Origin: Patescibacteria group bacterium
Lineage (GTDB): Bacteria > Patescibacteriota > Minisyncoccia > UBA6257 > GWB1-50-10
Length of the DNA: 64,000 nucleotides
NCBI GenBank assembly: GCA_040757555.1
Contig: JBFLWN010000006.1
Coordinates: forward strand, 5,748-69,747
Direction of reading: 5' to 3'
Shown here: one piece after another, positions 2,621 through 28,549 of the stretch
How the letters are laid out: each line of letters starts with the position of its first letter
Numbering within the stretch: the stretch's first letter is position 1
Notes under the pieces: generated by a model
What the model was told of the DNA's origin: nothing
The model's input: the letters and a program-made list of their open reading frames with translations, nothing else
Database searches by the model: none
Translations under genes and position numbers: made by a program

Positions 2621-3490
2621 ATGGAAGGAATTTTATTCGCGGTTGGGGCATTATTATCTTGGACATTTGGTGATTTTTTAATACAACGAACAGTAAGAAA
2701 AGTGGGAAGTTGGAAAGCACTTATGTTTATTGGTATTACCGCACTTTTTTTATTGTTTCCGTTTGTATATAAAGAAATCCCATTGCTTTTTAGTTCAATA
2801 AAACATCTCGCAATACTAACACTTGGAAGTGTTGTGATGTTTGCGGCAGCACTCTTTGATTTTGAAGCACTAAAAAGAGGAAAATTTTGCATTATAGAAC
2901 CCCTCTATGGAATTGAGGTGCCAATCTCAATTGGGTTGAGTATAGGACTATGGGGAGAAAGTCTTTCAACGCTACAAATGATTCTCATTGGTATTCTTTT
3001 TTTGGGAATCGTACTTGCGGTTACCACACATCATACCCATCTCCATTATCACAAACGTATATTTGAGCGTGGAGTTGTTCTCGCGCTCATAGGAGCGGTG
3101 GGTATGGGGCTTGGAAATTTTCTCGTCGGAGTCTCGAGTCAAACAACATCCCCCCTCCTTTCAATTTGGTTTATTCATGGGTTCTTAAGTATTTTGTGTC
3201 TATCTTATCTTCTCATGAGGAAACAACTTAAAGGAACTGTGAGAGAAATAAAAAATAATTTTGGTATTATTGCGGGACAAAGTATCCTCGATAATGTGGC
3301 GTGGATATGTTTTGCGTTTGCGACAACCATGATCCCAATATCAATCGCAACAGGAATCACAGAAAGCTACATTGCACTTGGGGCATTACTTGGGGTATTT
3401 ATTAATAAAGAAAAAATACGCTGGCATCAATATGTTGGTGTCGCGATCACGTGTATTGCGGTTGTATTTCTTGCAACAATAAGCGAGTAA
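2621..3490 (+). CDS. EamA/DMT-family (drug/metabolite transporter) membrane protein
   Basis: 289 aa with ~10 TM segments in a duplicated 5+5 arrangement typical of EamA-domain transporters. It starts 8 nt after tRNA-Arg. A terminator hairpin ccgctctacggcgg plus T-tract lies at ~3541-3565. Confidence 0.65.
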   Translation: MEGILFAVGALLSWTFGDFLIQRTVRKVGSWKALMFIGITALFLLFPFVYKEIPLLFSSIKHLAILTLGSVVMFAAALFDFEALKRGKFCIIEPLYGIEVPISIGLSIGLWGESLSTLQMILIGILFLGIVLAVTTHHTHLHYHKRIFERGVVLALIGAVGMGLGNFLVGVSSQTTSPLLSIWFIHGFLSILCLSYLLMRKQLKGTVREIKNNFGIIAGQSILDNVAWICFAFATTMIPISIATGITESYIALGALLGVFINKEKIRWHQYVGVAITCIAVVFLATISE

Positions 3491-3565
3491 ATGTTTGTTC
3501 TTTAATTTGAAATTAGAAATTCTAAATTGAAAATTCAAAACCGCTCTACGGCGGTTTTGTTGTTG

Positions 3566-3638
3566 TGCCCCCAGTAGGATTCGAACCTACGACCATTTGC
3601 TTAAGAGGCAACTGCTCTACCAACTGAGCTATAGGGGC
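3566..3638 (-). tRNA. tRNA-Lys (anticodon CTT)
   Basis: Read on the minus strand. Acceptor GCCCCTA/TGGGGGC (one G-U pair); D-arm GCTC-AGTTGGTA-GAGC; anticodon loop CTCTTAA (anticodon CTT); T-arm GTAGG-TTCGAAT-CCTAC; discriminator A. CCA is not encoded. Confidence 0.8.
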
Positions 3639-3679
3639 CAGCAGAAATATAGTACTAATTCTGTCCTCTTTTTGCAATT

Positions 3680-4426
3680 TTATTTTGATTTTTTTGTAAA
3701 ATCCAACACTATATTCATTATTTTTACATTCAACTCAATCCTTTTGGAAAACAGTTGCGCTTCCGGTGTTTCGGTACACATTGAATAAGGGACGCCATCT
3801 CGAAACATCCTATCCTCAAATGATCCGTCTTGGTGGTTGGTGATGAGTCCACCACTTAAAAGAACTCCGTAAATATACTTTTCTGTTTCAATTGGAAAAT
3901 ATTTTTTCGCAGACACAATAATGTCGCGATAAATTTTTTCAGTTTTTTTCTCAAAGTTATAGAGATAGAATTTTTTAAATCCCTTATTCTCATGAAGTGC
4001 GTGAAAGAAAAAAATATTTTCATCTTTTATGGTGTTGTGAAGTATCTTGTTCTCTCCTAATAAAATTCTCCTGCAAAAACAATTATTTAGATCTAGATTC
4101 AAAAAGTTATGACGCACCCCCTTATCAAACCCATATGGATTCGTCACAGGAAATAAAACGATTTTTATATCTTTATATTTCTTTGGATTATAATGTTTTA
4201 TAAACTCGAGTATTGCCCATGGACCCGCGGGCTCTTCTCCGTGAATTCCGCCAGAAAAACACACAACTTTCTTTCCGTGTCCCAGGATAATTTTAAACAT
4301 TGGATACTCTTTCTTTTTTCCAACATCACCAATTTTCTGTAATTTTATTCCTCGTCCCCTACAAATTTTTCTCAGTTCCGAAATGTATTTCTTATACATA
4401 ATTAAATTAATAATAACAATCCGCAC
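3680..4426 (-). CDS. M14-family zinc carboxypeptidase / succinylglutamate desuccinylase-aspartoacylase (AstE/AspA) family protein
   Basis: Motif FSGGIHGEEPAG matches the HxxE zinc-binding signature of AstE/AspA-type M14 enzymes. The 248-aa size is consistent. Confidence 0.5.
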   Translation of the reverse strand: MRIVIINLIMYKKYISELRKICRGRGIKLQKIGDVGKKKEYPMFKIILGHGKKVVCFSGGIHGEEPAGPWAILEFIKHYNPKKYKDIKIVLFPVTNPYGFDKGVRHNFLNLDLNNCFCRRILLGENKILHNTIKDENIFFFHALHENKGFKKFYLYNFEKKTEKIYRDIIVSAKKYFPIETEKYIYGVLLSGGLITNHQDGSFEDRMFRDGVPYSMCTETPEAQLFSKRIELNVKIMNIVLDFTKKSK

Positions 4427-4439
4427 ATTGTGCGGATTG

Positions 4440-5072
4440 TTAATTTAAACTCCTGAATGGAAAACAATAATGCTGAATACCTCTTTCCCCTAATTGTATT
4501 TGGGAACATCGTATGTTTATATCAAACTCATTTTTTAACTCTAATTTTGAATTATAAACCTCAAATCCATATTTAAGATTAACCTGAAGTTCGTTTCCTT
4601 TTTCCTCTGCATTTATTTTAGATACATCTGTACCATACAATAAACCCGTTTCCCCATTAGCCGGAACGAGGGTCGGAAGATTTGGGACGTCGTTTTTCGG
4701 TGTAAACATTGTAGTTGATGCCTGATCTTTAATATAAATATTTTTTATATACCCAGCGTCTTTTCCTGTATTTTTAAAGCGCATCACTAAAATCGCCTCC
4801 CCTGGCATAATATTAACGGCATTGGTTTGTAATTTTTCCCCATCTTTCCAACTCGTCCTTTTAATCGGGGTTCCATTTTTATCTATGAGTTCTAATTCAA
4901 TATCGCTAAGAGATATATTTGGCCCAATATCTATTGCTTTTAATTCTTTCGTTTCTAATACCTGTAAATATGTCATAACCGCTAAAATAATCGTTGCTAG
5001 CGCCATAATAGGAGTAGAAGCTTCTTTTATTTTATTAAATATTGTATTCTTTTCTTCCATGTGAATGTACAC
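4440..5072 (-). CDS. hypothetical membrane-anchored protein (N-terminal TM, extracytoplasmic beta-rich domain)
   Basis: 210 aa with a single N-terminal hydrophobic helix (IMALATIILAVMTYL) and no catalytic motif. Hairpin aatccgcacattgtgcggatt (4418-4440) lies right after its stop. Confidence 0.35.
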   Translation of the reverse strand: MYIHMEEKNTIFNKIKEASTPIMALATIILAVMTYLQVLETKELKAIDIGPNISLSDIELELIDKNGTPIKRTSWKDGEKLQTNAVNIMPGEAILVMRFKNTGKDAGYIKNIYIKDQASTTMFTPKNDVPNLPTLVPANGETGLLYGTDVSKINAEEKGNELQVNLKYGFEVYNSKLELKNEFDINIRCSQIQLGERGIQHYCFPFRSLN

Positions 5073-7265
5073 ATCATAGTAGAAAAATCATCAAAAATCG
5101 AGTATAATATGGCGGAAAATATGTCTCATATCGAATTATCATCCCCCCTCTCTTTGATTCATGGTATTGGACCACGATTTGTCCAAAAACTAAATAAACT
5201 GCACATCGAAACGGTAAAAGATTTATTGTGGCACTTCCCAACGCGATATGAAGACTTTTCGAATATCACAAAAATTTCCGATCTTATTCCTCGCGAAGAG
5301 TGCACTATTCAGGCACTCGTGAAAAAAATAAATGTGCGTCGTGCATGGCACAAGCGCATGTTTATTATTGAAGCAAAACTCGAAGACGAAACAGGAGAAA
5401 TACGCGCAGTGTGGTTCAATCAAACCTACATCAAAAATATTCTTCAACCCGGGAAAACAGCAAATTTTTCCGGAAAAGTAAGTGAATCGCGTGAGGGAGA
5501 GTTATATTTTTCGAATCCCGGATATGAGGTAATAACGTTTCAAGAAAAAGAAACAAAACACACGGGGCGCATTGTGCCGATTTATCCGGAAACAAAAGGA
5601 CTCACCTCAAAAGGTATCCGTTATCTCATCCAACCGCTATTAAAAGTAATTGAAAAACCAAAAGAATCACTTCCACAAAAAATCGTAAAACAATATAATC
5701 TCCTCCCCCTTTCCGAGGCACTCCATATTATTCACTTCCCCGAAACACTCGACGATGCAATGGAAGCCCGCAGACGATTTAATTTTGAAGAATTATTTCT
5801 CCTTCAACTTCATCTCCTTGGTGAACGTGCAAGACTCACAAAAGAAAAAGCACCCGCGCTCGATATCGATGTTTCGATGATAAAAGCATTTTTGGAAACA
5901 CTTCCTTTTGAACTCACCGCATCACAAAAACAAACGCTTTGGGAAATCGTACAGGATTTAAATAAACCCACCCCAATGAATCGCCTCCTCCAGGGAGATG
6001 TGGGTTCGGGAAAAACAATCATCGCAGCGCTTGCGGCAATATGCACCGCACACAAAGGATATCAAACCGCACTTATGGCACCAACCGAAATACTCGCACG
6101 ACAGCACTATCAGACCATCATTAAATTCTTTCCTGATCATGAGGAGGGCGTTGCACTCCTTACCGGGAGTGAATCAAAGTTGTCATATGGACACGGGCTT
6201 GAAACCGATTTGAAAAAACCATCACTCATAAAAGAGATTGAAAGTGGAAAAATACATATAGTGATTGGCACCCATGCACTTATCGCAACCTCAAAGACAA
6301 AAAAAGAAAGAAAGATCACATTTCCCTCGCTTGGTCTTGTTATTGTTGATGAGCAACACCGATTTGGTGTGCGTCAGCGCGCTGAACTTACCAAGCGAAA
6401 AGAATATATCCCCCATTTCTTAAGTATGTCTGCAACTCCGATTCCACGAACACTTTCACTCACCCTTTTTAGCGACCTTGACCTCTCACTTATCACCGAG
6501 CTTCCGAAAAACAGGAAAGTAATTATTACGAGTGCGGTGCCGCCCGAAGAACGCACAAAATCATATGCGTTTATTCGAAGTGAAATAAAAAAAGGAAGGC
6601 AAGCATTTGTAGTGTGCCCAAGAATCCAACCCACAACCGACGAGGGTGGGCTTTCATTGAAAGAGCTCCAAATGCTTCAGGTAAAATCGGTAACGGAGGA
6701 ATATGAAAAGCTTTCAAAAAAAATATTTCCGGATTTACGCGTTGCCATGCTCCACGGAAAAATGTCGGGAGAAGAAAAAGCGAAAATAATGAATTCGTTT
6801 ATAAAAAATGAAACAAATATTCTTATTTCAACGTCCGTGATTGAGGTGGGTGTCGATGTGCCAAATGCCTCCATTATGATGATCGAGGGGTCGGAACGAT
6901 TTGGTCTTGCGCAACTCTATCAATTTAAAGGACGCGTCGGACGCGGAGAACATCAATCATATTGTTTTCTATTTACCGACTCGTCTTCTGAAGAAGTAAA
7001 AAAACGCCTCACCTCAATTGTCGAAGCAAAAAATGGACTTGAGCTCGCCGAAAAAGATTTGAAGTTCCGTGGCCCTGGAGAATTTTTGGGAGAAGGACAA
7101 ACAGGGATGCCCGACCTTGCAATGAAGGCACTGCAAAATCCACAACTCATGAAAGATGCGCGAAAGTCAGCGGAAGAGATTATAAAAAAAGATCCAGAAC
7201 TTTCTCTATATCCGGATTTAAAAAGTGCGGTAAAAATATTTACCTCACAAATACACAGAGAATAA
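5061..7265 (+). CDS. recG: ATP-dependent DNA helicase RecG (likely true start near 5109, MAENMSH...)
   Basis: Wedge/OB N-terminal region; Walker A GDVGSGKT; DEQHRFGV (DExH) motif; helicase C-terminal motifs (QFKGRVGRG). 734 aa. Confidence 0.9.
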   Translation: MNVHIIVEKSSKIEYNMAENMSHIELSSPLSLIHGIGPRFVQKLNKLHIETVKDLLWHFPTRYEDFSNITKISDLIPREECTIQALVKKINVRRAWHKRMFIIEAKLEDETGEIRAVWFNQTYIKNILQPGKTANFSGKVSESREGELYFSNPGYEVITFQEKETKHTGRIVPIYPETKGLTSKGIRYLIQPLLKVIEKPKESLPQKIVKQYNLLPLSEALHIIHFPETLDDAMEARRRFNFEELFLLQLHLLGERARLTKEKAPALDIDVSMIKAFLETLPFELTASQKQTLWEIVQDLNKPTPMNRLLQGDVGSGKTIIAALAAICTAHKGYQTALMAPTEILARQHYQTIIKFFPDHEEGVALLTGSESKLSYGHGLETDLKKPSLIKEIESGKIHIVIGTHALIATSKTKKERKITFPSLGLVIVDEQHRFGVRQRAELTKRKEYIPHFLSMSATPIPRTLSLTLFSDLDLSLITELPKNRKVIITSAVPPEERTKSYAFIRSEIKKGRQAFVVCPRIQPTTDEGGLSLKELQMLQVKSVTEEYEKLSKKIFPDLRVAMLHGKMSGEEKAKIMNSFIKNETNILISTSVIEVGVDVPNASIMMIEGSERFGLAQLYQFKGRVGRGEHQSYCFLFTDSSSEEVKKRLTSIVEAKNGLELAEKDLKFRGPGEFLGEGQTGMPDLAMKALQNPQLMKDARKSAEEIIKKDPELSLYPDLKSAVKIFTSQIHRE

Positions 7266-7314
7266 TAAACCCTTTATTTTTTAATAGAATACCGTACACT
7301 AATAACTGAATCAA

Positions 7315-7385
7315 CGGGCTGTCGTATACCGGTAGTACGCTTGCTTTGGGAGCAAGTAGACTGGGTTCAATTCCCAGCAGCCCGA
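7315..7385 (+). tRNA. tRNA-Pro (anticodon TGG)
   Basis: Acceptor CGGGCTG/CAGCCCG; D-arm GTAT-ACCGGTA-GTAC; anticodon stem CTTGC/GCAAG with loop TTTGGGA (anticodon TGG); T-arm CTGGG-TTCAATT-CCCAG; discriminator A. No CCA. Confidence 0.8.
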
Positions 7386-7392
7386 CAAAAAA

Positions 7393-8472
7393 ATGATCTT
7401 TATATTCAAAGATAATCCAGAGCGGATAAAGAATATAGAATTAAAAGAAAGTAAATTTAAACAGAAACTTCACTCGCATGTTCCTGATTTTTGTTTTGGT
7501 ACAAAATACCTAAAAAGAAAAAAAAGGGGGGAGGATCCGCTTGAATTTTTAAAAAGATATTCACGCCATTGGTTTTCCAATCTTGGGCGACATATCACGG
7601 CGCCGCTCGAAAAAGTAAAAATAGAGTGGAAAAGAAAATATATGATTTTCCCCTCGGTGATGAATGAGAAAGAGAGGGTGTTTTGTAAATACTCAATACA
7701 AAAAAGTGGCCCAGGAAAAAAAGTCGCACTTATTACGGTCATGCACTGGAACGGTATTCCGAAAGAATATGACGCACTCATTTCATTCGTGAGGAATCGA
7801 CTCTTGCCGTTAAGCACATTCTTGTTTATCCCCTCAAATCGCAAGGCCTCGTGGGGAATTAAAAAATCAATGGACTATGAAAGTGTGGGTCCAGATATTG
7901 GACATATGGTTTCGCGTTTCCAAAAAAATGTTTTCGACATACAACGTCTTGCGTGGATTTTAAAAAACGAACTTGGGTTTGATGAGGTGGGAATATTTTC
8001 TTTCAGTATGGGGACGTGTTATTCGTCTGTTGCGACAATGGGAAATCCATCGCTCTTTGATTTTGCGATTTTTCATCTTCTCGCGGATGATTTTCATAAA
8101 GCACTTATGAGCGGGGTTGGCACAACAAGAATAGCTGAAAAAATAAAGGGAAATGTGAAAGAAGAAGACCTCCATGAAATTTTAAAAATACTTTCCCCTG
8201 GAGCGTATGAGAAAAAACTAAAAAATCTCCCAAAACACACACGAATTGTCCAGGCAAAATATGATCACGTATTTTGTCCCGAAAACGTTACTACAATAAA
8301 CAAAAAAATACGGGCAGTTCGCCACGATATCGAAGTAGATATGGAACCATTGGGACACAACTGTCTTAATTCATTCCCATTGGGACTCAAGGTGCTCTAT
8401 AACGACATAAAATTCATTTATAAATACACTGGGATGAAAAAACATCCATTTCGCAAATTTTTCATCTCCTAA
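7393..8472 (+). CDS. alpha/beta-hydrolase-fold protein (putative esterase/lipase-like), function unknown
   Basis: Nucleophile-elbow-like FSFSMGT (small-x-Ser-x-small), followed in order by candidate acid (KYDHVF) and His (EPLGHNC) residues. The Ser-Asp-His order matches alpha/beta hydrolases. 359 aa. Confidence 0.4.
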   Translation: MIFIFKDNPERIKNIELKESKFKQKLHSHVPDFCFGTKYLKRKKRGEDPLEFLKRYSRHWFSNLGRHITAPLEKVKIEWKRKYMIFPSVMNEKERVFCKYSIQKSGPGKKVALITVMHWNGIPKEYDALISFVRNRLLPLSTFLFIPSNRKASWGIKKSMDYESVGPDIGHMVSRFQKNVFDIQRLAWILKNELGFDEVGIFSFSMGTCYSSVATMGNPSLFDFAIFHLLADDFHKALMSGVGTTRIAEKIKGNVKEEDLHEILKILSPGAYEKKLKNLPKHTRIVQAKYDHVFCPENVTTINKKIRAVRHDIEVDMEPLGHNCLNSFPLGLKVLYNDIKFIYKYTGMKKHPFRKFFIS

Positions 8473-8934
8473 TTATTTCTCAGGGGGTAGTCCGTTTGTC
8501 GCAAGTGAACGGTTGGAATATCGATCATCGTCCGTCACCTCAACCGCATTATTCGCCCATTCCGGCAACACGAATTGTTTTGCGTCTTCCTCATCTATAA
8601 ATTCACACTCAAGAATCATAAGTGGTGCAAGTGATCCTTTGTATATATCAAATTCAATTGAGTGATTATGATACGGAATTATATATCGATCCTTTTCTAA
8701 TTTTTTCTTCTCTATCCCCGACCATATCTTCTGAAATACCCACTCGGGAATTTCAACTTCCCATTCTTTTCTCACGAGCCCCCGACCTTCTTTTACTGTC
8801 ATAAAATATTTCTCCCCCTTTCTCCGTACACGAATTTTTTTTCCATACCCCTGTGCAATATGGAAAATTTCCTTTCCAAGAAGTATTTCTTCGGGAATTG
8901 GAGAAGTAATTTTAAATCTTCTTTCTATTTCCAT
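8473..8934 (-). CDS. CYTH-domain protein (CyaB/thiamine-triphosphatase-like triphosphate tunnel enzyme)
   Basis: N-terminus MEIERRFKI resembles the CYTH family N-terminal ExExK-type motif (MEIERKFLV in family members), and the 153-aa size fits. Assignment is by motif memory only. Confidence 0.45.
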   Translation of the reverse strand: MEIERRFKITSPIPEEILLGKEIFHIAQGYGKKIRVRRKGEKYFMTVKEGRGLVRKEWEVEIPEWVFQKIWSGIEKKKLEKDRYIIPYHNHSIEFDIYKGSLAPLMILECEFIDEEDAKQFVLPEWANNAVEVTDDDRYSNRSLATNGLPPEK

Positions 8935-8977
8935 ATGTATACATTATATATAAAAATCCCCCGATGTGTGTCGGGGG

Positions 8978-9586
8978 TTATAATGATTCATCAAACATCC
9001 TCATCTTCTCCAAAAACTGTCTATTTAAACCATTAATGATCGCGGTTTTTTCATTCACCGCACTTATACTCGACCGAACAATATTCTGATTCTGAATTGT
9101 GTTATCTAAAATAAGTGTCGTAAGATCACCCAAAAAATTATTTAATACTTGCGTATAAGAAATAAATTCACTCACCAAAGAAAGCTCCACCGCGACCGCC
9201 TCATAGGCAGTCCTCTGTTCCCCCGGAGAACGAATTTCTGAAAGTGATTCGGCGAGTGTCTTCAGATTTTGTGAAAGTTCAAATGCCTTTCCATATGCCG
9301 CCTCATTTGATGCGCGAGCGCTTTGGATGAGTGCCAGTGCTTCTTCATTTTTTCCTTTTATCTCCAATACATTAATTTTTGCTACCTTTTCATTTGTCTC
9401 ATTAGTAAGGCGAACAATATCTTCACTCACGAGTGACGCACTTTTGCGAGCTTCAATAAAACGCTCGGGTATTCCCCGTGAAGCGCGTAGCGAGGTAATA
9501 TAAATGATTCCCAACACAATAATAATAGCCCCGACGGAAACCCCGATTACCTGGATAAGCCTTTTTTGGTGATCCTCAAGCTTCAT
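8978..9586 (-). CDS. hypothetical membrane-anchored coiled-coil protein
   Basis: 202 aa with an N-terminal TM helix (VIGVSVGAIIIVLGIIYITSL) and the rest predicted helical. Hairpin tcccccgatgtgtgtcggggg (8953-8976) downstream of its stop acts as a terminator. Confidence 0.35.
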   Translation of the reverse strand: MKLEDHQKRLIQVIGVSVGAIIIVLGIIYITSLRASRGIPERFIEARKSASLVSEDIVRLTNETNEKVAKINVLEIKGKNEEALALIQSARASNEAAYGKAFELSQNLKTLAESLSEIRSPGEQRTAYEAVAVELSLVSEFISYTQVLNNFLGDLTTLILDNTIQNQNIVRSSISAVNEKTAIINGLNRQFLEKMRMFDESL

Positions 9587-9676
9587 ACGTGAAATACATC
9601 ATATCATAGGGTTTTGGGGTGCGCTACCCTCATATACTTGCGTGACATTCATTTTTTGTGCAAAATTGTAGGAGTG

Positions 9677-9750
9677 GCGGGATTCGTATAGTGGTTGTAC
9701 GTCACCCTTCCAAGGTGAAGGCACGGGTTCGATTCCCGTATTCCGCTCCA
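9677..9750 (+). tRNA. tRNA-Gly (anticodon TCC), CCA encoded
   Basis: Acceptor GCGGGAT/ATTCCGC; anticodon stem TCACC/GGTGA with loop CTTCCAA (anticodon TCC); T-arm ACGGG-TTCGATT-CCCGT; discriminator T then CCA. Confidence 0.85.
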
Positions 9751-9805
9751 GATTTGTAACGTTACAGTATTCTAGAAACAAAAGGGCTCGTCACTCGTTA
9801 TAGGT

Positions 9806-10369
9806 ATGAAGGAGGAAATAACGCTCGTTCAAAGAGCACAATCGGGGGAATCTGAGGCGTTTGGGGTACTCTATGATACCTACCTTCCAAAAATATATCG
9901 TTTTATACTTTTGAAAGTCACAAAAAAAACGGATGCCGAGGATATTACCCATCAGGTGTTTTTGAGTGCCTGGCAAAACATAAAATCATATCGTTTTCAG
10001 GGAAATCCTTTTTCGAGTTGGCTTTACAAAATTGCACATAACGCTGTCATTGATTTCTACCGAACACAAAAACCAATTGTAGATATCGAGCTTGTCTCGG
10101 AAGATTCACTTGCTCACCTTCCAAATCTTGAACATGAATTAGATCGCGGAATGGAATTAATAAAAGTCCGACACGCACTTACAAAACTAAAACCGGATGA
10201 GCAAAGCATACTTATCATGAAGTTCGTTGATGAATTATCGAATAAAGAAATTGCTGAAGCACTTCACAAAACAGAAGGAGCAATACGCGTTATACAACAT
10301 AGAGCACTTAAACAAATAAAGAACATACTTAATGAGTCAACACATACACAAACAATTAGAACAGCTTAG
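9806..10369 (+). CDS. RNA polymerase sigma-70 factor, ECF subfamily
   Basis: 187 aa. Region 2 (FGVLYDTYLPKIYRFIL...DAEDITHQVFLSAW) and region 4 helix-turn-helix (LSNKEIAEALHKTEGAIRVIQHRALKQI) are typical of ECF sigma factors. Confidence 0.85.
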   Translation: MKEEITLVQRAQSGESEAFGVLYDTYLPKIYRFILLKVTKKTDAEDITHQVFLSAWQNIKSYRFQGNPFSSWLYKIAHNAVIDFYRTQKPIVDIELVSEDSLAHLPNLEHELDRGMELIKVRHALTKLKPDEQSILIMKFVDELSNKEIAEALHKTEGAIRVIQHRALKQIKNILNESTHTQTIRTA

Positions 10370-13669: not shown

Positions 13670-13771
13670 AATATGAAGTAATTGAAAGTTTTATATACAT
13701 CGACGTTTTCTCTTTCACTATTCATTTTATATCTCCTTCATCATTTATGTCAAAAGACGTACAATAGATAT

Positions 13772-15322
13772 ATGAAGCGTACCTACACACTTGTGATACT
13801 CGACGGATGGGGATTTGGAAAAGTGGATGACTCAAATCCCATACACCAGGCCCAATTAAAAACATTCAAATTCATTGAAGATAATTTTCCGTATGGTGCA
13901 CTCCAGGCATCCGGTATTTCAATCGGAATGCCGTGGGACGAAGAAGGAAATAGTGAAATCGGACACCTTACCATTGGAGCGGGACGGGTATTTTATCAAC
14001 ACTATCCAAAAATTACACTTGCAATTGAAAACGGATCTTTCTTTGAAAACAAAACATTAAAAAATTCTTTTGCTCACACAAAAAAGAATAATAGTGCCCT
14101 TCATCTTATTGGTCTCGTCGGAGAAGGGGTTGTTCATTCGGCATTTACCCACCTTGTTGCACTTCTTGATATGGCAAAAAGAGAGGGGTGTGCGCAGGTA
14201 TATATACACGTAATGAGTGACGGAAGAGATGGTGCTCCCCAACTCATTGTTTCGTATATAGAAAAACTGAGAGAGGAAATAAAAAAATATGGCGTGGGAA
14301 CCATCGCTACGCTTATCGGGAGATATTATGGTATGGATAGAGACAGGCACTGGGATCGAACAAAAAAAGCATATGATATGTTGGTATATCCAGAACATAC
14401 TCGAATTACTGATATAAAAACTGCGACGGAAGAAATATATGCAAAAAAACTTAACGATGAATATATCGAGCCAACCATCATAAATGAGATTCACCCCATA
14501 GAAGACGGCGACTCGGTGCTTTTTTTCAATTTTAGGGAAGACCGCATGAGACAAATTGTTGAGCCATTTGTAAATCCGGAATTTTCAACATTCCAAACAA
14601 AAAAATTCCAAAATCTTCTTCTTACCACAATGACGGAATATCGAAATGATTTTTCTATTCCTGTGGTATTTGAAAGGGAGGAAATTATAGATCCGCTCGG
14701 AAAAGTTATTTCCGATTCGGAACGAGTGCAATTGCGTATCGCGGAAACAGAAAAATATGCCCACATCACTTACTTTTTTAATGGGCTCCAGGAAAAACCA
14801 TATTCAAATGAATATCGTGTGCTCATCCCCTCAAAAAATGTAGCGCATCACGAAGAACATCCCGAAATGATGGCAAGCGCAATCACCGATCGGGTGATTA
14901 TTGCACTTAATGAAGGGGGGTTTGATTTTATACTCGTAAATTATGCAAATCCGGATATTATTGCACACACAGGAGATTTTGAGGCTACAGTAAAAGCTGT
15001 TCGTGTTATTGATGCAGAAATAGAACGACTCATGAATGCCACACTCGCCCAAAATCACGTTCTTATTATTACTTCGGATCATGGAAACGCAGAGACACTT
15101 ATCAGCACACAAACAGGACAACCCGAGACAAAACACGATGCAAATCCGGTCCCCTTCTATCTCATAGGAAGAGAATTCCAAAAACAAAACACATCTCCAA
15201 AGCCGTCTCGACCACCAGTGATAGGTCTTCTTTCTGATGTTGCCCCCACCATTCTCGCACTTATGGGAATAAAAAAACCAAAAGAAATGACAGGACAAAG
15301 TCTCCTCGAACAATTAATATAA
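13772..15322 (+). CDS. gpmI: 2,3-bisphosphoglycerate-independent phosphoglycerate mutase (ORF track starts at TTG 13682; ATG 13772 MKRTYTLVILDGWG is the likely start)
   Basis: N-terminus MKRTYTLVILDGWG is the iPGM hallmark. Metal/phosphoserine motifs present (SDGRDG..., ITSDHGN). ~516 aa. Confidence 0.9.
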   Translation: MKRTYTLVILDGWGFGKVDDSNPIHQAQLKTFKFIEDNFPYGALQASGISIGMPWDEEGNSEIGHLTIGAGRVFYQHYPKITLAIENGSFFENKTLKNSFAHTKKNNSALHLIGLVGEGVVHSAFTHLVALLDMAKREGCAQVYIHVMSDGRDGAPQLIVSYIEKLREEIKKYGVGTIATLIGRYYGMDRDRHWDRTKKAYDMLVYPEHTRITDIKTATEEIYAKKLNDEYIEPTIINEIHPIEDGDSVLFFNFREDRMRQIVEPFVNPEFSTFQTKKFQNLLLTTMTEYRNDFSIPVVFEREEIIDPLGKVISDSERVQLRIAETEKYAHITYFFNGLQEKPYSNEYRVLIPSKNVAHHEEHPEMMASAITDRVIIALNEGGFDFILVNYANPDIIAHTGDFEATVKAVRVIDAEIERLMNATLAQNHVLIITSDHGNAETLISTQTGQPETKHDANPVPFYLIGREFQKQNTSPKPSRPPVIGLLSDVAPTILALMGIKKPKEMTGQSLLEQLI

Positions 15323-22488: not shown

Positions 22489-25400
22489 TTATTTATTTTT
22501 CTTTATCGCAACTTTCATCGGCCACTCATCTATTTTGGTATCTATCTCCGCATGCAATATTTTTGGTTTCGAGAAAAGAATATTTTTCGCGTTTACTAAT
22601 TTCTTAAATTCAGTGTTCCATTTTGTTATCACAAACTTCAACTCCTCTGATGTTTCAATATATAACTCAATTACATCCTTTGGTTGTAATTTTGCGTCCT
22701 GACGTAAATCCTGAACAATCCTCGTAAGTTCGCGTAGCCACCCCTCTTCTTTTAATTCGTGGGTAATTACCGTATCGAGCACCATGTGGTCGTTTGTCTT
22801 CTCGGAAAAAATCACCTCTTTCACATTTATTTCATCTTTCAAAATATCAAGATACGCGTGTTTTCCTTTTAATAGCGATGTTTTTGAGTTGAGAGTAACC
22901 GAGGTAAGTGGTTGGCGCACCTTAATTCCTAACTCCGCACGTTTCGCAAGTGCGAGACTCGCCACAGCACGTACTTCATCCATACATGCAAATAAATCTT
23001 TATCAATAAACTTCTTTTGTGCTGTTGGCCACTCATCCAAGTGCACGGAAAGTTTTTTTCCGATAAGTGACTGATAGAGCGCCTCCGTAAAAAATGGGGT
23101 AAGCGGTGCCATAAGTTTACTTATTTCGAGAAGGACAAATCCAAGTACGCGTGTGGCGATTTCATAATCTTTCTTATTCTCGGGTTTTTGGAATCGCTTT
23201 CGTGAGCGTCGGATATACCACCTCGAAAGATCATCAACAAACGATTCGATTGCCTTTCCTGCGCTTCCGATATCATATGTTTCAAACCCCACTGTCGCCT
23301 TCTCGGTTGTTTCTGCAAATCTCCCCAATATCCACTTGTCGAGAAGCGGAAGGGACGCGGGAAGTGTTTTGTTTTTTACTTTTGCCCCATAAAGGTCGAA
23401 AAACACAAATGAATTATAGAGAAGTGAAAAAAGCTGGCGGGAAACCTTTCCGAGTTCCATTTCGTCAAAACGCTTTGATTCCCCCGGAGGATTTGTAGTA
23501 TAAAAATACCATCGTGCCGCATCGATACCATATTTTTTTATCATGTCCCACGGATCGACGATATTTCCTTTTGATTTGGACATTTTCTGCCCGTTCTTAT
23601 CGAGAATAAGCCCCGAAGAAATAACATTTTTAAACGGCGTCCCCTTTCCGGTAAGCACCCCAATTGCAAGAAGTGTATAAAACCATCCACGTGTTTGATC
23701 AATTCCTTCGGAGATATAATCCGCAGGGTAGGCAAGTTTATTTTTTTTATCGAATGGATAATGTGATTGTGCAAATGGCATTGCACCCGAATCAAACCAT
23801 ACATCAACTACTTCGGGTATTCGTTTCATAACTCCCTTGCATTTTTTACAAGGAAACTTAAATTCGTCGATAAATGGACGATGCAAGTCGAGTGATCCGG
23901 TCGCATCCCGCGGAACGTTTTTCATCATTCCCTTCTCGAATCCGGCATTTCTTATATAATCAAATCCTCTTTTTTCCTTTTCAATTAATTGATCTTCTGT
24001 GGACCATCCGCTGATAATGGAGTGGAGCATGTAGACGGGCCCATCGTGCGTCACCACAAGGATTGTTTTGTTTTTATATTTCTTTTCTGTCTCAATAAGA
24101 AATTCAAATAAACGTTTTCGCAAATCCGTATGATTTTCCCCATTCGGCATTCGTTTTGTGAATTTCTCTAAACGTGAACTATAATACGGCTGAAACGACT
24201 CATATTTTTTTCCATTGAAATCCCCAAAGTTGAATTCCCGAAGTCGCGCATCAAAGATGACCTTATCCTTAAATCCGACAATTTCCTTTACGGTCTCGGC
24301 GGTTTGTTTTGTTCGTGTTATATCCGAAGCAAAAATCATGTCTATTTTTTCTTTCTTCAGTATGCGCGCAGTTTTTTCCACCTGCGTTCTTCCCAAAAGT
24401 GTAAGTGGCAACTTCACCGGTTCGGGCCAACAATTCAACAAATGTTTTGTGTTATTCTCTGCCTGCCCATGACGCATAAAAATATACCGATTTGTCCCCC
24501 CTCCCAACGCCTCCTTAAACTCATCAACGCTCCCCACCACTCTCCGTGCCTCACATGAATCACACTCCCAGATTGGAAGTGGGGTGCCCCAATACCGTTC
24601 ACGAGATATTGCCCAATCTTTTACCTCACGAATCCATTCACCAAACCTTCCCTCTTTTAGATGACTGGGAACCCAATTTATTTTTTTGTTTTCAGTAATA
24701 AGTTTTTCCCTCAATGCACTCATCCCAATAAACCACGAACTGCGCGCATAATAGAGGAGCGCGGAATTGCAACGCCAGCAAAATGGATATTCGTGCTTAT
24801 ATTTTTCGGTTCGCAAGAAAAAATTCTTCTTTCTCAATGATTCAAATATTTTTTCATCTGTGTTTGGATTTTTTGCGGGCAATCCGGAAAATTCCTCAAT
24901 TTCTTCCACAAATCTTCCTTGTTCGTTCACTGTGTGGTATTCGGGTAGTCCAATTTTTTTCCCAAGCACATAATCATCCTCTCCATACATAACTGCAGTG
25001 TGCACCACACCAGTTCCGTCTGTTGTGGTAACAAAATCCGCAGCATATACTTTATAAGCTTTTTCTTTAGGGTCTATTTTTTTGATCGCGGGTATTTTGA
25101 ATAACGGCTCATACAAAAGCCCCACAAGATCTTTTCCTTTTATTTTTTCGATTTCGGTATATCCAATTTCGAGAATCGACAATCGCGGGGTTGCGAGAAT
25201 ATACGTTTCGGATATTTTTCCCTCTTTTATCGCCACAATCGAATAATCGACGTGTGGAGCGATTGCAAGCGCAATGTTTCCAGGAAGCGTCCATGGCGTG
25301 GTCGTCCAAGAAAGAATATAGGTATGTGGTCCCACTATTCTTTTTCCGATTTTCTGTTTTTCTTTTAATTTGAATTTCAAGTACACAGAGTTTTCCTCAA

Positions 25401-25995
25401 CCTCACGATACCCAAGTGCCAATTCGTGCGATGAGAGTCCAGTGCCACACCGAGGACACCACGGAACTACTTTGTGTCCACGGTATAATAATTTTTTTTC
25501 TGCAGTTGATTTAAAAATCCACCACAGTGTTTCTATATATGAGTTTTGATACGGAATATATGGGTCTTTGAGATCAAGCCAAAACCCCATTCGTTTGGTA
25601 AGCCTTTCCCACTCATCCTTATATTTCCACACCGATTCTTTGCATTTTTGGTTGAATTCGGCAATCCCAAATTTTTCAATCTCTTTTTTTGAGGAAAGGC
25701 CAAGTTGTTTTTCAACCTCAAGCTCAACGGGTAACCCATGCACATCCCACCCCCCTTTTCGCGGAACTACATATCCACGCATGGTTTTATATCGCAACAC
25801 CACATCCTTAAATGAGCGCGAAAGAACATGATGAATTCCCGGTTTTCCATTTGCTGTTGGGGGACCTTCATAAAAAACAAATTTTTTCCCCTTGTTTTTT
25901 GTAAGCGAGCGCTTAAAAATATCGTGTGCGTCCCAAAAATCAAGGACTTTTTCTTCGACGTCAGGAAGTGAAAATTTATCTAATCGTTTAAGCAT
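22489..25995 (-). CDS. ileS: isoleucyl-tRNA synthetase, type 2 (eukaryote/archaeal-like), with an inserted histidine-phosphatase-superfamily domain (ORF track extends to 26049; MLKRLDK at 25995 is the likely start)
   Basis: HIGH-region PPTANGKPGIHHVLS; CP1 editing domain; zinc knuckle WCPRCGT / CDSCEA; KMSKS. The DLHRPFIDE...CKKCKG...VDVWFDSGAMPFAQ block matches type 2 IleRS. An extra ~180 aa containing RHGQAENN ... VVTHDG sits between the zinc knuckle and DLHRP. Confidence 0.9.
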   Translation of the reverse strand: MLKRLDKFSLPDVEEKVLDFWDAHDIFKRSLTKNKGKKFVFYEGPPTANGKPGIHHVLSRSFKDVVLRYKTMRGYVVPRKGGWDVHGLPVELEVEKQLGLSSKKEIEKFGIAEFNQKCKESVWKYKDEWERLTKRMGFWLDLKDPYIPYQNSYIETLWWIFKSTAEKKLLYRGHKVVPWCPRCGTGLSSHELALGYREVEENSVYLKFKLKEKQKIGKRIVGPHTYILSWTTTPWTLPGNIALAIAPHVDYSIVAIKEGKISETYILATPRLSILEIGYTEIEKIKGKDLVGLLYEPLFKIPAIKKIDPKEKAYKVYAADFVTTTDGTGVVHTAVMYGEDDYVLGKKIGLPEYHTVNEQGRFVEEIEEFSGLPAKNPNTDEKIFESLRKKNFFLRTEKYKHEYPFCWRCNSALLYYARSSWFIGMSALREKLITENKKINWVPSHLKEGRFGEWIREVKDWAISRERYWGTPLPIWECDSCEARRVVGSVDEFKEALGGGTNRYIFMRHGQAENNTKHLLNCWPEPVKLPLTLLGRTQVEKTARILKKEKIDMIFASDITRTKQTAETVKEIVGFKDKVIFDARLREFNFGDFNGKKYESFQPYYSSRLEKFTKRMPNGENHTDLRKRLFEFLIETEKKYKNKTILVVTHDGPVYMLHSIISGWSTEDQLIEKEKRGFDYIRNAGFEKGMMKNVPRDATGSLDLHRPFIDEFKFPCKKCKGVMKRIPEVVDVWFDSGAMPFAQSHYPFDKKNKLAYPADYISEGIDQTRGWFYTLLAIGVLTGKGTPFKNVISSGLILDKNGQKMSKSKGNIVDPWDMIKKYGIDAARWYFYTTNPPGESKRFDEMELGKVSRQLFSLLYNSFVFFDLYGAKVKNKTLPASLPLLDKWILGRFAETTEKATVGFETYDIGSAGKAIESFVDDLSRWYIRRSRKRFQKPENKKDYEIATRVLGFVLLEISKLMAPLTPFFTEALYQSLIGKKLSVHLDEWPTAQKKFIDKDLFACMDEVRAVASLALAKRAELGIKVRQPLTSVTLNSKTSLLKGKHAYLDILKDEINVKEVIFSEKTNDHMVLDTVITHELKEEGWLRELTRIVQDLRQDAKLQPKDVIELYIETSEELKFVITKWNTEFKKLVNAKNILFSKPKILHAEIDTKIDEWPMKVAIKKNK

Positions 25996-26063
25996 AATTA
26001 TCAATTTTAGACGAAAAGAAGGCTTTTTACAAAAGCCTTCATTCCACACATTCCCCCCTGAGA

Positions 26064-27671
26064 TTACATGCTTTCGGGAATATTTATTCCTATTACTCTG
26101 AAAAGGTTTTCGAAAACAATTTTCGTTGCTTCGATAAGAAAAATCCTTGCTTGAAATATTTCTTCTTTTTCCCCTATTACGTGTTCTTTTTCGTAAAAAT
26201 TATGAAATGCTCGTGCAAGTTCGGTTGCATATCGCGTAAGTCGATGCACCTCAAAGTCGCTCACGCACATATCAATGATTTCGGGAAATTGTATTAATTT
26301 TCTTATCAAAAACAAGTCTTCGTTTGTGTGTAAATAACTAAGATCAATAGTGGGGTCGAGAACAAAAGTCCCTGCTTTTTCCCCAATACTTCGTGCCCGA
26401 ACATACGCATACTGCACATAATACACGGGGTTCTGCATTGATTTTTGTTTTACCGCCTCCAAATCAAAATCAATGTGGGTGGTAGGGGCGCTTGAAAGAA
26501 GTGAAAACACCACATTATCCCTTCCCACCTCATCAAGGAGTTCTTCCGTGGTGACGTATGTTCCTGCACGTTTTGACATTTTTATCACCTCATTCCCTCG
26601 TTTTACGCGTACAAATTGGTACAACAATACCTTAAATTTTTCTGAATCATATCCAAACAACTTGGTAAGTGCTTGTAATTTCGGAACGTGACCATGGTGA
26701 TTGCTTCCAAATACATCAATCACAAAATCATATCCCGATTCGAATTTCTCTTTGTGATAAGCAATATCAGAGGCAAAATATGTCGGCCTTCCATTACTCT
26801 TCACAATTACCGCCTCTCTATCCTCTAAAAACTCATCTTTCGGCGAAAACCACAGCGCTCCCTCATTCTCTTTTGTTGCCCCTTTCTTTTTTGTGATATC
26901 AATTGCCTCTTGGGTTTTTCCGGAAGAAATTAATTCGCTTTCTTTTCGAATAAGATCAAAAAGAATTCCCATTCGTTTCAAAACGCCCATATTATTTTCA
27001 AAAATATAATCGAGTCCAAATTCCGTAAGCCTCGCAACGGTAATATTTTCTTTATTTTCAAACTTCTTGAGTGCCGCGGTTACCACTTCTTCAAGATACT
27101 CCCCTTGATATCCCCCCTCGGGAAATGTAGCATCCTTTCCAAGTTTTTTTTCATACCAATACCATAACGTCTCTCCCAGTTTATCGATTTGTCCCCCCAC
27201 ATCATTATGGAGATATTCACGAAGTACTTCATACCCGCTTTCTTCGTACACGCGAGCCAAACTTTCGCCATACGGACCACCACGAGCATTTCCGATGTGG
27301 ATAGGACCGGTCGGATTTGCCGAGACATATTCAATTCTTATTTTTTTTCCACTCCCCTTTTTGTTCTGTCCATATGCACCTTTTTTTTCAAGAATATTTT
27401 TTAATTCTCCACGGAGTACGTCTTTGGAAATCCAGAAATTAATGAATCCTCCCGCTGCAATTTCGATTTTTTCAAACAATGTATTTTTTTGAAGTATTTC
27501 AATAATTTCTTTTGCAACAATAGATGGTAATTTTTTTTCTTTTTTCGCTAGAGCAAACGCGACACTCGTCGAATAGTGCCCAAATTTTCCATCTTCCTGA
27601 AACTCAATATCAAAGTGAATGTCTTCAGGAACTATGTTTTTTACTAATTTTAATATCTCCTCTTTTATCAT
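26064..27671 (-). CDS. argS: arginyl-tRNA synthetase
   Basis: Class I motif PTGPIHIGNARGG (HIGH); DALR anticodon-binding C-terminal region. 535 aa. Co-directional with ileS 15 nt downstream. Confidence 0.9.
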   Translation of the reverse strand: MIKEEILKLVKNIVPEDIHFDIEFQEDGKFGHYSTSVAFALAKKEKKLPSIVAKEIIEILQKNTLFEKIEIAAGGFINFWISKDVLRGELKNILEKKGAYGQNKKGSGKKIRIEYVSANPTGPIHIGNARGGPYGESLARVYEESGYEVLREYLHNDVGGQIDKLGETLWYWYEKKLGKDATFPEGGYQGEYLEEVVTAALKKFENKENITVARLTEFGLDYIFENNMGVLKRMGILFDLIRKESELISSGKTQEAIDITKKKGATKENEGALWFSPKDEFLEDREAVIVKSNGRPTYFASDIAYHKEKFESGYDFVIDVFGSNHHGHVPKLQALTKLFGYDSEKFKVLLYQFVRVKRGNEVIKMSKRAGTYVTTEELLDEVGRDNVVFSLLSSAPTTHIDFDLEAVKQKSMQNPVYYVQYAYVRARSIGEKAGTFVLDPTIDLSYLHTNEDLFLIRKLIQFPEIIDMCVSDFEVHRLTRYATELARAFHNFYEKEHVIGEKEEIFQARIFLIEATKIVFENLFRVIGINIPESM

Positions 27672-27753: not shown

Positions 27754-28191
27754 ATGACAATATTTTCATTAAATAAGCGGGCGGGATTTGATTACGAAAT
27801 ACTCGAAACATTCGAGGCGGGCATTGAATTAAAAGGATTTGAGGTGAAATCAATTGCAAGTGGACGCGTAAGCACTGTTGGAAGTTACGCAATTGTAAGA
27901 GGTAATGAAGTATGGGTGGTAAATCTCGACATTCCCCCTTATCAACCACAAAATACACCGGAAGGATATGATCCAAAACGAACACGCAAACTTTTGCTTC
28001 ATAAAAAAGAAATTGAGCATCTCATTGGACGCACAAAAGAAAAAGGATTGACTATTGTGCCAATAAAGATGTATAATAAGAACTCAAAAATAAAAATTGA
28101 GTTGGGCCTCGGACGAAGTAAGAAAAAATATGATAAGCGCGAAGTGATCAAAAAAAGAGAAACCGAGCGCGAAATAAGGAGATTAAGTTGA
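27754..28191 (+). CDS. smpB: SsrA-binding protein SmpB
   Basis: 145 aa. N-terminus NKRAGFDYEILETFEAGIELKGFEVKSI and the C-terminal basic tail are classic SmpB. Confidence 0.9.
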   Translation: MTIFSLNKRAGFDYEILETFEAGIELKGFEVKSIASGRVSTVGSYAIVRGNEVWVVNLDIPPYQPQNTPEGYDPKRTRKLLLHKKEIEHLIGRTKEKGLTIVPIKMYNKNSKIKIELGLGRSKKKYDKREVIKKRETEREIRRLS

Positions 28192-28217: not shown

Positions 28218-28536
28218 GGGGGTGCACGTATCGACAGAGATTATATGTATACATAGCAGGTCGAGCTGAATATCTCGAAAACTGTTCAACAAATTATAAC
28301 TGCCAATTTTAACGCAGTCCCCGCGCTCGCTTACGCGTAGTACGGCATCGGCCCTTCAGGTCTCATAGAGGATCACCGGTGTTATAATGAGAACCGCTCA
28401 GAGTATGGATCTACTTCGCTCCATCCTGAGTTAAATAACGCAAAGTACCATTGTTCTGAACTTTTAGTTCAAAAACTAAGCTTGTAGAATATGTATAGAT
28501 AAATTTTTGGAAGAGGGTTCAATCTCTCCACCTCCA
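28218..28536 (+). ncRNA. ssrA: tmRNA (ssrA), ~319 nt, standard non-permuted form
   Basis: Immediately downstream of smpB. 5' end GGGGGTG...ATCGACAG (tmRNA 5' consensus-like). 3' tRNA-like end with T-arm GAGGG-TTCAAT-CTCTC and acceptor CACCTCC pairing to GGGGGTG with G3-U70 (alanine identity); discriminator A. Internal tag reading frame GCC AAT TTT AAC GCA GTC CCC GCG CTC GCT TAC GCG TAG (28302-28340). Terminator aaccccttagtggggttttt follows. Confidence 0.7.
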
Positions 28537-28549
28537 CAAATAAAACCCC

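Follow-up and report, generated by a model that had tools for sequence, protein, structure and literature searches.

A histidine phosphatase domain nested in isoleucyl-tRNA synthetase, or encoded upstream of it, in Parcubacteria-type Patescibacteria

A stretch of 64,000 nucleotides from a Patescibacteria group bacterium (contig JBFLWN010000006.1, positions 5,748 to 69,747 of the forward strand; hereafter the window) encodes on its minus strand an isoleucyl-tRNA synthetase (IleRS, gene ileS) with a second enzyme inside it. A histidine phosphatase of about 200 residues sits in frame between the two zinc knuckles of connective peptide 3 (CP3) of this otherwise intact, normal type-2 IleRS. The same phosphatase is found inside ileS or in front of it in hundreds of related species, and it is a clade-wide feature of Parcubacteria-type Patescibacteria with an in-trans alternative state. 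Host and guest are each normal-looking; what is new is their combination and its dynamics. Our preferred explanation, to which we assign a probability of roughly 0.5, is that the domain is an active phosphomonoesterase that works with IleRS near the catalytic core, its substrate most likely being a small phosphorylated molecule.

Position and boundaries of the insert

The open reading frame (ORF) that holds ileS is unbroken from 22489 to 26049 on the minus strand. Residues are numbered here from the GTG at 26049, following an initial annotation of this DNA made from the sequence alone. The true start codon is ATG 25995 (M19): P0001, an identical NCBI protein from a Patescibacteria metagenome-assembled genome, has 1168 aa and begins there. 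M19 is invariant among homologs, the GTG lies 18 codons upstream of this conserved ATG, and the first 14 residues are modelled with a predicted local distance difference test score (pLDDT) below 50. The features of the gene are listed below, where A1 denotes an alignment of 70 homologs of the full protein.

22489..25995, minus strand: ileS, type-2 IleRS with nested phosphatase (1168 aa; ATG at 25995, M19)
25828..25839, minus strand: class I signature in the non-canonical GXHH form (GIHH, residues 71-74), by motif reading
24775..25449, minus strand: CP1 editing domain (residues ~201-425), with WTTTPWT at 248 and GTGVVH at 345, by alignment and motifs
24553..24564, minus strand: first CxxC zinc knuckle of CP3 (C496, C499), invariant in A1
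23893..24510, minus strand: inserted segment, residues 514-719, missing from Thermus IleRS, P. megaterium IleRS2 and insert-less Patescibacteria IleRS
23896..23913, minus strand: C-terminal linker PRDATG (713-718), in embedded forms only (P713 in 46/50, D/N715 in 47/50)
23839..23850, minus strand: second CxxC zinc knuckle of CP3 (C734, C737), invariant in A1
23572..23586, minus strand: KMSKS loop (822-826), invariant in A1
22903..23340, minus strand: anticodon-binding domain PF08264 (residues 904-1049), by Pfam

Residues 2-478 and 488-821 of Thermus IleRS (1ile) align to residues 20-513 and 720-1042 of the query (E 1e-242). The gap thus runs from 513 to 720 in the query and from 478 to 488 in Thermus, and about 206 residues stand in place of about nine. 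The alignment to P. megaterium IleRS2 breaks at the same place. In a 70-sequence genome alignment (50 embedded-state and 20 free-state IleRS), the columns of the insert hold 181-216 residues in embedded forms and 3-13 in insert-less ones; across A1 the insert measures 199-211 aa. The initial annotation had recognized an extra domain of about 180 residues at 23950-24495, in a loop that it took to be normally about 20 aa long. The domain is indeed there, although its true span is slightly wider (23893-24510) and its size nearer 200 residues, and the ordinary loop is only about 10 aa by the counts given above for Thermus and the insert-less relatives.

The earlier description of the segment as an in-frame domain insertion into a type-2 IleRS, neither a gene fusion nor a frameshift, agrees with the unbroken ORF and with the alignment to Thermus, which resumes past the insert; the KMSKS loop and the anticodon-binding domain are intact, as had been stated. 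Misassembly or a frameshift was ruled out by the intact ORF, by recurrence of the insert in more than 120 protein clusters and 52 species genomes, and by its uniform length. No Hint/intein splicing domain or homing endonuclease was found in residues 514-719, where Pfam gives His_Phos_1 alone.

In Thermus-type IleRS, CP3 is the subdomain that contains the zinc motif (Candida IleRS structure paper, PMC7191050). Since the insert lies between the two CxxC knuckles, the phosphatase is nested within CP3. Embedded forms run on into the PRDATG linker, and the free-standing phosphatases described below terminate before its position. All four CP3 Cys are kept in 43 of 50 embedded-state versus 19 of 20 free-state IleRS. 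Zinc Cys have been lost at seven of the 50 embedded-state loci (L056, L064, L069, L072 and three more), and the inserted domain can apparently serve as the clamp in place of zinc.

The host scores 882 bits against the ileS model TIGR00392 (cut-off 621) and carries the Pfam domains tRNA-synt_1, Anticodon_1 and, at its C-terminus, DUF5915. The C-terminal DUF5915, where IleRS1 has a zinc-binding domain, and the best Protein Data Bank (PDB) matches, 1ile and P. megaterium IleRS2, with IleRS1 structures much weaker, assign it to type 2. The AlphaFold 2 (AF2) model of the whole protein has a pLDDT of 88.5 and a predicted TM-score (pTM) of 0.80, with the blocks of the insert at about 90-97, and among PDB folds P. 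megaterium IleRS2 matches it best (TM 0.82, normalised to target). The nested phosphatase also explains why these proteins are called no more than 'class I tRNA ligase family protein' at NCBI.

Identity of the inserted domain

The inserted segment is a genuine, folded histidine phosphatase of branch 1, as the initial annotation had proposed from its RHG motif and second His. It matches PF00300 with 108 bits (113 bits for the insert alone) against a cut-off of 21.7, over profile positions 2-164 of 194. The domain and its residues lie as follows.

23995..24483, minus strand: His_Phos_1 (PF00300) match, residues 523-685, E 4.9e-31
24466..24474, minus strand: RHG motif, comprising R526, the nucleophile H527 and G528; R and H invariant
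24421..24429, minus strand: WPE motif (541-543), a subfamily signature with conservation in free and embedded copies
24313..24315, minus strand: R579, second phosphate-binding Arg, 100% conserved
24235..24237, minus strand: E605, putative acid/base residue, E or D across the family
24046..24048, minus strand: H668, second catalytic His (ILVVTHDG), 100% conserved

The RHG codons had been read correctly (ttt atg cgt cat ggg cag), at a position one base off; the sequence gives 24480-24463. The second His motif, ILVVTHDG, is present as described and contains H668.

Modelled alone by AF2, the domain has a pLDDT of 92.6 and a pTM of 0.90. Foldseek matched it to Rv2419c (GpgP), PspA, HFP (9MMH), PhoE, TIGAR and CobC at TM 0.70-0.76 and 20-25% identity, with E values of 3e-14 to 5e-13 for Rv2419c, PspA, HFP and PhoE. 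Among the matches listed, the nearest solved structures are all small-molecule phosphomonoesterases, and no protein phosphatase was present among the 50 structural matches listed.

Curated models were not reached for CobC alpha-ribazole phosphatase (TIGR03162, 87.3 vs cut-off 162.9), for SixA (TIGR00249, 27.5 vs 74.5, with a match limited to the first ~70 residues) or for cofactor-dependent phosphoglycerate mutase (dPGM; TIGR01258, 31.3 vs 81.7; archaeal dPGM NF038349, 86 vs 225). A weak match to the bifunctional RNase H/acid phosphatase model NF005567 was also observed (72 bits vs 326). No equivalog cut-off being reached, the domain belongs to the superfamily but falls into none of its characterised families. 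It is shorter than the dPGM models of 227-249 positions, and its matches to them span only the first ~100 model positions. The initial annotation had reported a cofactor-independent mutase gene (iPGM, gpmI) in the window and had argued that the domain is not the glycolytic mutase. That gene was found at 13682-15322, and a housekeeping dPGM was rejected because of the scores far under the cut-offs and the presence of iPGM in the genome. No second copy of the domain occurs elsewhere in the window. PADLOC-DB defence models gave no match at E<=0.01 to the insert, to two free-standing homologs or to the whole IleRS.

Conservation of the catalytic residues

R526, H527, R579, E638 and H668 are 100% conserved in the 52 embedded and 26 free genome copies introduced in the next section, and R526, H527, R579 and H668 are likewise invariant in the homologs of A1. 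Position 605 is E in 46 and D in 6 of the 52 embedded copies, and E in 18 and D in 8 of the 26 free ones. In the WPE motif, W is kept in 22/26 and P in 25/26 free copies, and in 22/52 and 37/52 embedded copies, respectively. Every domain copy in proteins with several copies keeps the catalytic residues. The sole copy without the nucleophile His (RAG for RHG) is that of P0280, a degenerate IleRS paralog that also lacks CP1. Among close relatives of the window, the insert is 68-73% conserved and the IleRS core 64-70%. Judged by this pattern, the predicted catalytic machinery is under selection everywhere, and the residues that it retains indicate that the inserted phosphatase is almost certainly catalytically active.

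Embedded and free-standing phosphatases

PF00300 is present in all 120 best homologs of the full protein, which share 53-100% identity and are named Jorgensen-, Brennerbacteria, Paceibacterota, Minisyncoccia, Parcubacteria and others. A survey of IleRS orthologs in the Candidate Phyla Radiation (CPR), which the initial annotation had proposed, thus finds the same insertion in 120/120 best homologs as well as in 52 species genomes. A search with the insert alone returned free-standing Patescibacteria phosphatases of ~190 aa with 39-47% identity. This list is incomplete, holding only proteins of ~200 aa and no embedded forms, though P0001 contains the query; the census of architectures below rests on an exhaustive profile search of 1.84 billion representatives, which gave 375 clusters at E<=1e-30.

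The free-standing phosphatases have a CWPE(K) motif following RHG. Their genes sit between argS and an insert-less ileS, in the same smpB-argS-ileS neighbourhood as in the window, and at locus L006 the phosphatase stop overlaps the ileS start. His_Phos_1 proteins that are more remotely related (~35% identity) lie away from ileS. With the alignment of the free-standing forms, a single GTDB genome per species was scanned, and the best 80 of at least 517 confirmed places were examined, with the following distribution.

52 loci: phosphatase embedded in ileS, at the CP3 site
26 loci: phosphatase gene separate and directly upstream of ileS, in the same orientation; in 8 of these, one or two unrelated genes intervene
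1 locus: cut by the contig end
1 locus: exception, L051 (see below)

The phosphatase therefore lies in ileS or directly upstream of it at 78 of the 79 scorable genome loci. No free copy was found within 7 kb of an embedded locus among the examined genome loci.

The eight free-state loci with genes between phosphatase and ileS are L001/L011 (intervening genes at 8570-9160 in L001 and 7570-8160 in L011), L013, L014, L027, L037, L043, L053 and L058. The intervening genes include a CYTH triphosphatase-like gene, which Pfam confirmed, and, by sequence reading only, NYN-like and Cas2/PaaX-like genes, a pyridoxal phosphate (PLP)-type enzyme and hypotheticals. No consistent partner or functional clue was found among them at these eight loci, and the spot between the phosphatase gene and ileS seems to accept insertions.

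The Parcubacteria argS-phosphatase-ileS layout also occurs under taxon labels that fit it poorly, namely L089 ('Candidatus Pacearchaeota archaeon'), L031 ('Candidatus Humimicrobiaceae') and many third-party annotation (TPA) bins labelled 'uncultured Candidatus Saccharibacteria'. These are probably mislabelled or contaminated bins and not a sign of transfer to archaea.

Multiple copies and additional insertion sites

Some IleRS hold more than one phosphatase. Two tandem domains are present at the CP3 site in P0198, P0266 and P0270, and at least three to four in P0160. A second insertion site lies past the WFDSG block (P0209, P0248 and one form with this site alone), and a third lies just ahead of the anticodon-binding domain (P0189, P0248). 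The three sites, at residues 514, ~766 and ~890, flank KMSKS (822) in sequence. Domain copies inside one protein are only 24-54% identical to each other and have kept their catalytic residues, which argues that they are old and functional and no assembly artefacts. A census of the 150 best representatives from the profile search gave these architectures.

69/150: free single-domain
4/150: free di-domain
About 65/150: embedded (complete or fragmentary)
0/150: N-terminal end-to-end fusion to IleRS
1/150: ArgRS-phosphatase C-terminal fusion

The free tandem di-domain proteins (P0240, P0267, P0292 and P0303) are 382-413 aa long, and their existence demonstrates that the domain duplicates outside IleRS too. 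Proteins of a 'Phos-IleC' type that start with M were considered as N-terminal fusions; we read them as fragments of embedded forms, and not as proven split genes.

At locus L078, tandem ileS paralogs (3422-6964 and 6983-10012) each carry a phosphatase insert. The second paralog, of 1009 aa, has no CP1 and a degenerate HIGH region, and P0280, with its RAG, is a relative of it. Both activities may be dead in paralogs of the P0280 type, to judge from these motifs, and such a paralog might represent a pseudo-enzyme or a half-way stage as the two functions are reshuffled. Other matches of ~915-980 aa that appeared to be IleRS without an editing domain proved to be gene calls cut short at the N-terminus; a genuine lack of CP1 was confined to P0280 and the second gene of L078.

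Switching between states

After the columns of the insert had been taken out, the IleRS core (923 columns) was used for a neighbour-joining tree with 200 bootstraps. In this tree the free-state IleRS do not form a single clade (bootstrap 0.0), and four clades mix the two states: L025 (free) with L046 (embedded) at a support of 1.0, L058 (free) with L061 (embedded) at 0.98, L064 (embedded) with five free forms at 0.985, and L074 (embedded) with two free forms at 0.98. The phosphatase tree likewise pairs L058 and L061 as sisters (0.83), and therefore that switch happened in place.

Most embedded clades have a homologous C-terminal linker. The junctions of L061, L074 and L080 differ from it and are shorter, which suggests that these three are re-insertions. 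In an outgroup-rooted neighbour-joining tree of the domain, the free forms are nested within an embedded grade; the rooted tree and the common linker together hint that the embedded state is the older one in much of the tree, although internal branches are short and L061, L074 and L080 have the deviating junctions. There were several switches between states, probably in both directions.

Neighbouring genes and other observations

Three protein-coding genes and one RNA gene in the window bear on the context of ileS or are needed below.

26064..27671, minus strand: argS, upstream neighbour of ileS; in relatives the free phosphatase gene sits between the two
27754-28191, plus strand: smpB
28218-28537, plus strand: tmRNA gene, directly after smpB, tag peptide ANFNAVPALAYA
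483-1964, minus strand: CCA-adding enzyme (PolyA_pol, HD and tRNA_NucTran2_2 domain matches)

In most related loci smpB is within the conserved argS/ileS neighbourhood.

Two side observations concern the synthetase itself. The GxHH signature is present in 35/50 embedded-state and 10/20 free-state IleRS of the genome set, most others having HxGH. This form has been reported only in IleRS2, and the swapped motif is tied to mupirocin hyper-resistance in type-2 IleRS (PMC10485003). Nine Staskawiczbacteria-like free-state IleRS (L014, L016, L019, L027, L032, L033, L037, L053 and L054) form one long-branch clade, with EMHKS where all other aligned IleRS show KMSKS or a close variant; the first Lys of the catalytic loop is therefore replaced by Glu.

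Function of the phosphatase

In the explanation that we prefer, H527 would attack a phosphomonoester to give a phospho-histidine intermediate, with R526, R579 and H668 holding the phosphate and E605 acting as acid/base, as expected from the family. The phosphatase would be supplied in cis, inside IleRS, or in trans, from a gene directly upstream that often overlaps ileS, and it would strip phosphate from a small nucleotide-type molecule made at, or interfering with, the synthetic site. The conserved linkage, the repeated capture, the state switching, the embedded-only linker and the invariant catalytic set speak for this explanation, and for the class of substrate so do the nearest folds, which are those of small-molecule phosphatases. 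We infer that the phosphatase is functionally coupled to IleRS, and the insertion sites, placed from the sequence, would be spatially near the catalytic core. A related proposal, which we regard as unlikely, makes the phosphatase a second accessory catalytic site, CP1-like in logic, that acts on something bound at the IleRS core. Candidate targets would be a (pyro)phosphorylated 3' end of tRNA(Ile), the KMSKS loop in phosphorylated form, or a nucleotide by-product or inhibitor that carries a phosphate. The initial annotation had suggested action on a phosphorylated tRNA end, on Ap4A or ppGpp, or on a phosphohistidine partner; the present results lend specific support to none of these.

Several observations weigh against coupling. 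The sequence points to no substrate, and the domain falls under every curated equivalog cut-off. The whole smpB-argS-(phosphatase)-ileS-recO block is syntenic across these lineages, and adjacency alone is therefore no proof of a functional tie. ArgRS with a C-terminal phosphatase occurs in at least two lineages, 49% identical (P0183, P0308 and P0309; L090 6001-8070, L091 7001-9163 and L092 1349-3511). At L091 and L092, ileS starts 6 bp past the fusion; at L090 the slot is without ileS, and recO follows directly. Locus L051 has a free member of the subfamily (398-973) without an adjoining ileS. Downstream of it, on the opposite strand, lies a ValRS-like class I synthetase (judged by its N-terminal sequence; ~26% tblastn match to the IleRS probe). 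The ArgRS fusions and L051 indicate that the tie to IleRS is not absolute. The trees, moreover, are neighbour-joining trees of a single gene each.

Much of this would be expected if the phosphatase were a captured neighbour, that is, an independent housekeeping small-metabolite phosphatase of the argS-ileS operon, welded to its surroundings by local rearrangements and without any link to aminoacylation, CP3 and the other sites being merely insertion-tolerant loops. The synteny of smpB, argS, ileS and recO despite their unrelated functions fits such capture, as does the end-to-end fusion to ArgRS in at least two lineages, which persists where ileS has left the slot. CP3 is also variable in structure among IleRS (PMC7191050), the structural neighbours of the domain are ordinary metabolic phosphatases, and the free state shows that covalent attachment is dispensable. 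Simple capture is the main rival and a serious one, although we consider it somewhat unlikely. It sits poorly with three internal sites and tandem arrays in an essential enzyme that shows no simple N-terminal fusion, and with a subfamily (the 375 clusters at E<=1e-30) that occurs essentially only in the ileS context while relatives of ~35% identity occur elsewhere. The conserved embedded-only linker also speaks against it, as do lineages that amplify the domain and still keep it in cis.

An activity directed at tRNA, in which the phosphatase takes a phosphate off bound tRNA (at the 2'/3' position, or the last one of a CCA end that has been pyrophosphorylated) and so repairs it for charging, strikes us as improbable. 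NF005567 shows that His_Phos_1 can be fused to a nucleic-acid enzyme, although the insert stays far under the cut-off of that model. However, no His_Phos_1 enzyme for RNA ends is among the structural matches listed, and a general problem with tRNA ends would leave the preference for IleRS unexplained. The window also already encodes a CCA-adding enzyme with an HD domain, and the HD domain of the E. coli CCA-adding enzyme has 2',3'-cyclic phosphodiesterase and phosphatase (end-healing) activities. The RNases encoded in the window, RNase Y and RNase J, leave products that end in 3'-OH.

A phosphorylated protein would be another conceivable target. A built-in protein phosphatase could reverse an inhibitory phosphorylation of IleRS, for example at a Ser of the KMSKS loop, much as HipA-family toxin kinases phosphorylate GltX and TrpS. 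This would account for a synthetase-specific partner, the three insertion sites flank the KMSKS loop in sequence, and His_Phos_1 includes the protein phosphatases PGAM5 and Sts-1. Yet a kinase partner was not seen in any locus, no defence or toxin-antitoxin model matched, the 50 listed structural matches are all small-molecule enzymes, and arrays of up to four active copies would be needless for an intramolecular reaction; we judge this idea very improbable. Least credible of all is a non-catalytic module that would either brace CP3 structurally or, by binding a phosphorylated metabolite, act as a sensor that tunes IleRS. Loss of the CP3 zinc ligands in 7/50 embedded forms has the look of a domain that replaced the zinc clamp, but about 100 diverged copies, free ones included, all retain the full catalytic set (100% conserved), and the one copy that has lost the nucleophile His (P0280) belongs to a degenerate paralog of IleRS.

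Few known enzymes are as conserved as the aminoacyl-tRNA synthetases, and extra catalytic domains that do not edit are rare in bacteria. In a whole radiation of ultrasmall bacteria that depend on hosts, the only visible IleRS has a complete second enzyme set into its catalytic domain. If our preferred explanation of an active phosphatase coupled to IleRS is true, it would represent a new accessory synthetase function (repair, protection or by-product clearance) and would offer a way into the unusual biology of translation in Patescibacteria. If the two are uncoupled, the loci would be an unusually clear natural experiment in which a gene turns from neighbour into nested domain and leaves again, and would also show how much insertion the CP3 loop of IleRS tolerates.

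Comparison with known systems

The initial annotation knew of no synthetase with an embedded phosphatase, and we likewise found no description of an IleRS, or any synthetase, paired with a histidine phosphatase in the open-access literature searched. A 2026 preprint that annotates the domains of 96,219 IleRS sequences is silent on phosphatases and on CPR/Patescibacteria. Compared with Thermus thermophilus IleRS (1ILE) and P. megaterium IleRS2 (8C8V), the window IleRS matches over its full-length sequence and fold, including the HUP core, the CP1 motifs, the zinc-binding CP3, KMSKS, the anticodon domain, the type-2 C-terminus (DUF5915) and the GXHH variant of IleRS2. It differs in having a second enzyme of ~200 residues between the CP3 zinc knuckles, and a nested second enzyme in CP3 was present in no solved or described IleRS that we found.

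The guest domain shares its fold, its length class (~190-210 aa), the RHG...R...E...H core and a short cap region with PhoE (1H2E/1EBB), PspA (4IJ5), Rv2419c (4PZ9), HFP (9MMH) and CobC. In contrast to these, it is only 20-25% identical to them, falls under all curated cut-offs and has its own CWPE(K) motif. Those enzymes are free-standing in metabolic contexts, whereas the subfamily found in the window is inserted in ileS or adjoins it, with L051 as the exception. The dPGM GpmA belongs to the same superfamily and has the same catalytic residues, but differs in length and model scores.

Other enzymes combine a synthetase or a phosphatase with a further catalytic domain. NCBIfam NF040702 describes an IleRS that bears an extra catalytic domain, although in that case it is an N-acetyltransferase of the GNAT type. 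NF005567 joins His_Phos_1 to an RNA/DNA enzyme, with RNase H as a different host. Both architectures are probably end-to-end fusions and not nested insertions. The nearest precedents also include the CP1 editing domain, which is well established as a second catalytic site within IleRS: it is likewise hydrolytic, folds as a unit of its own and is set into a loop of the Rossmann-fold catalytic domain. Unlike the phosphatase, which is lineage-restricted and can be encoded separately, CP1 occurs universally; its substrates are aminoacyl esters and its fold is unrelated.

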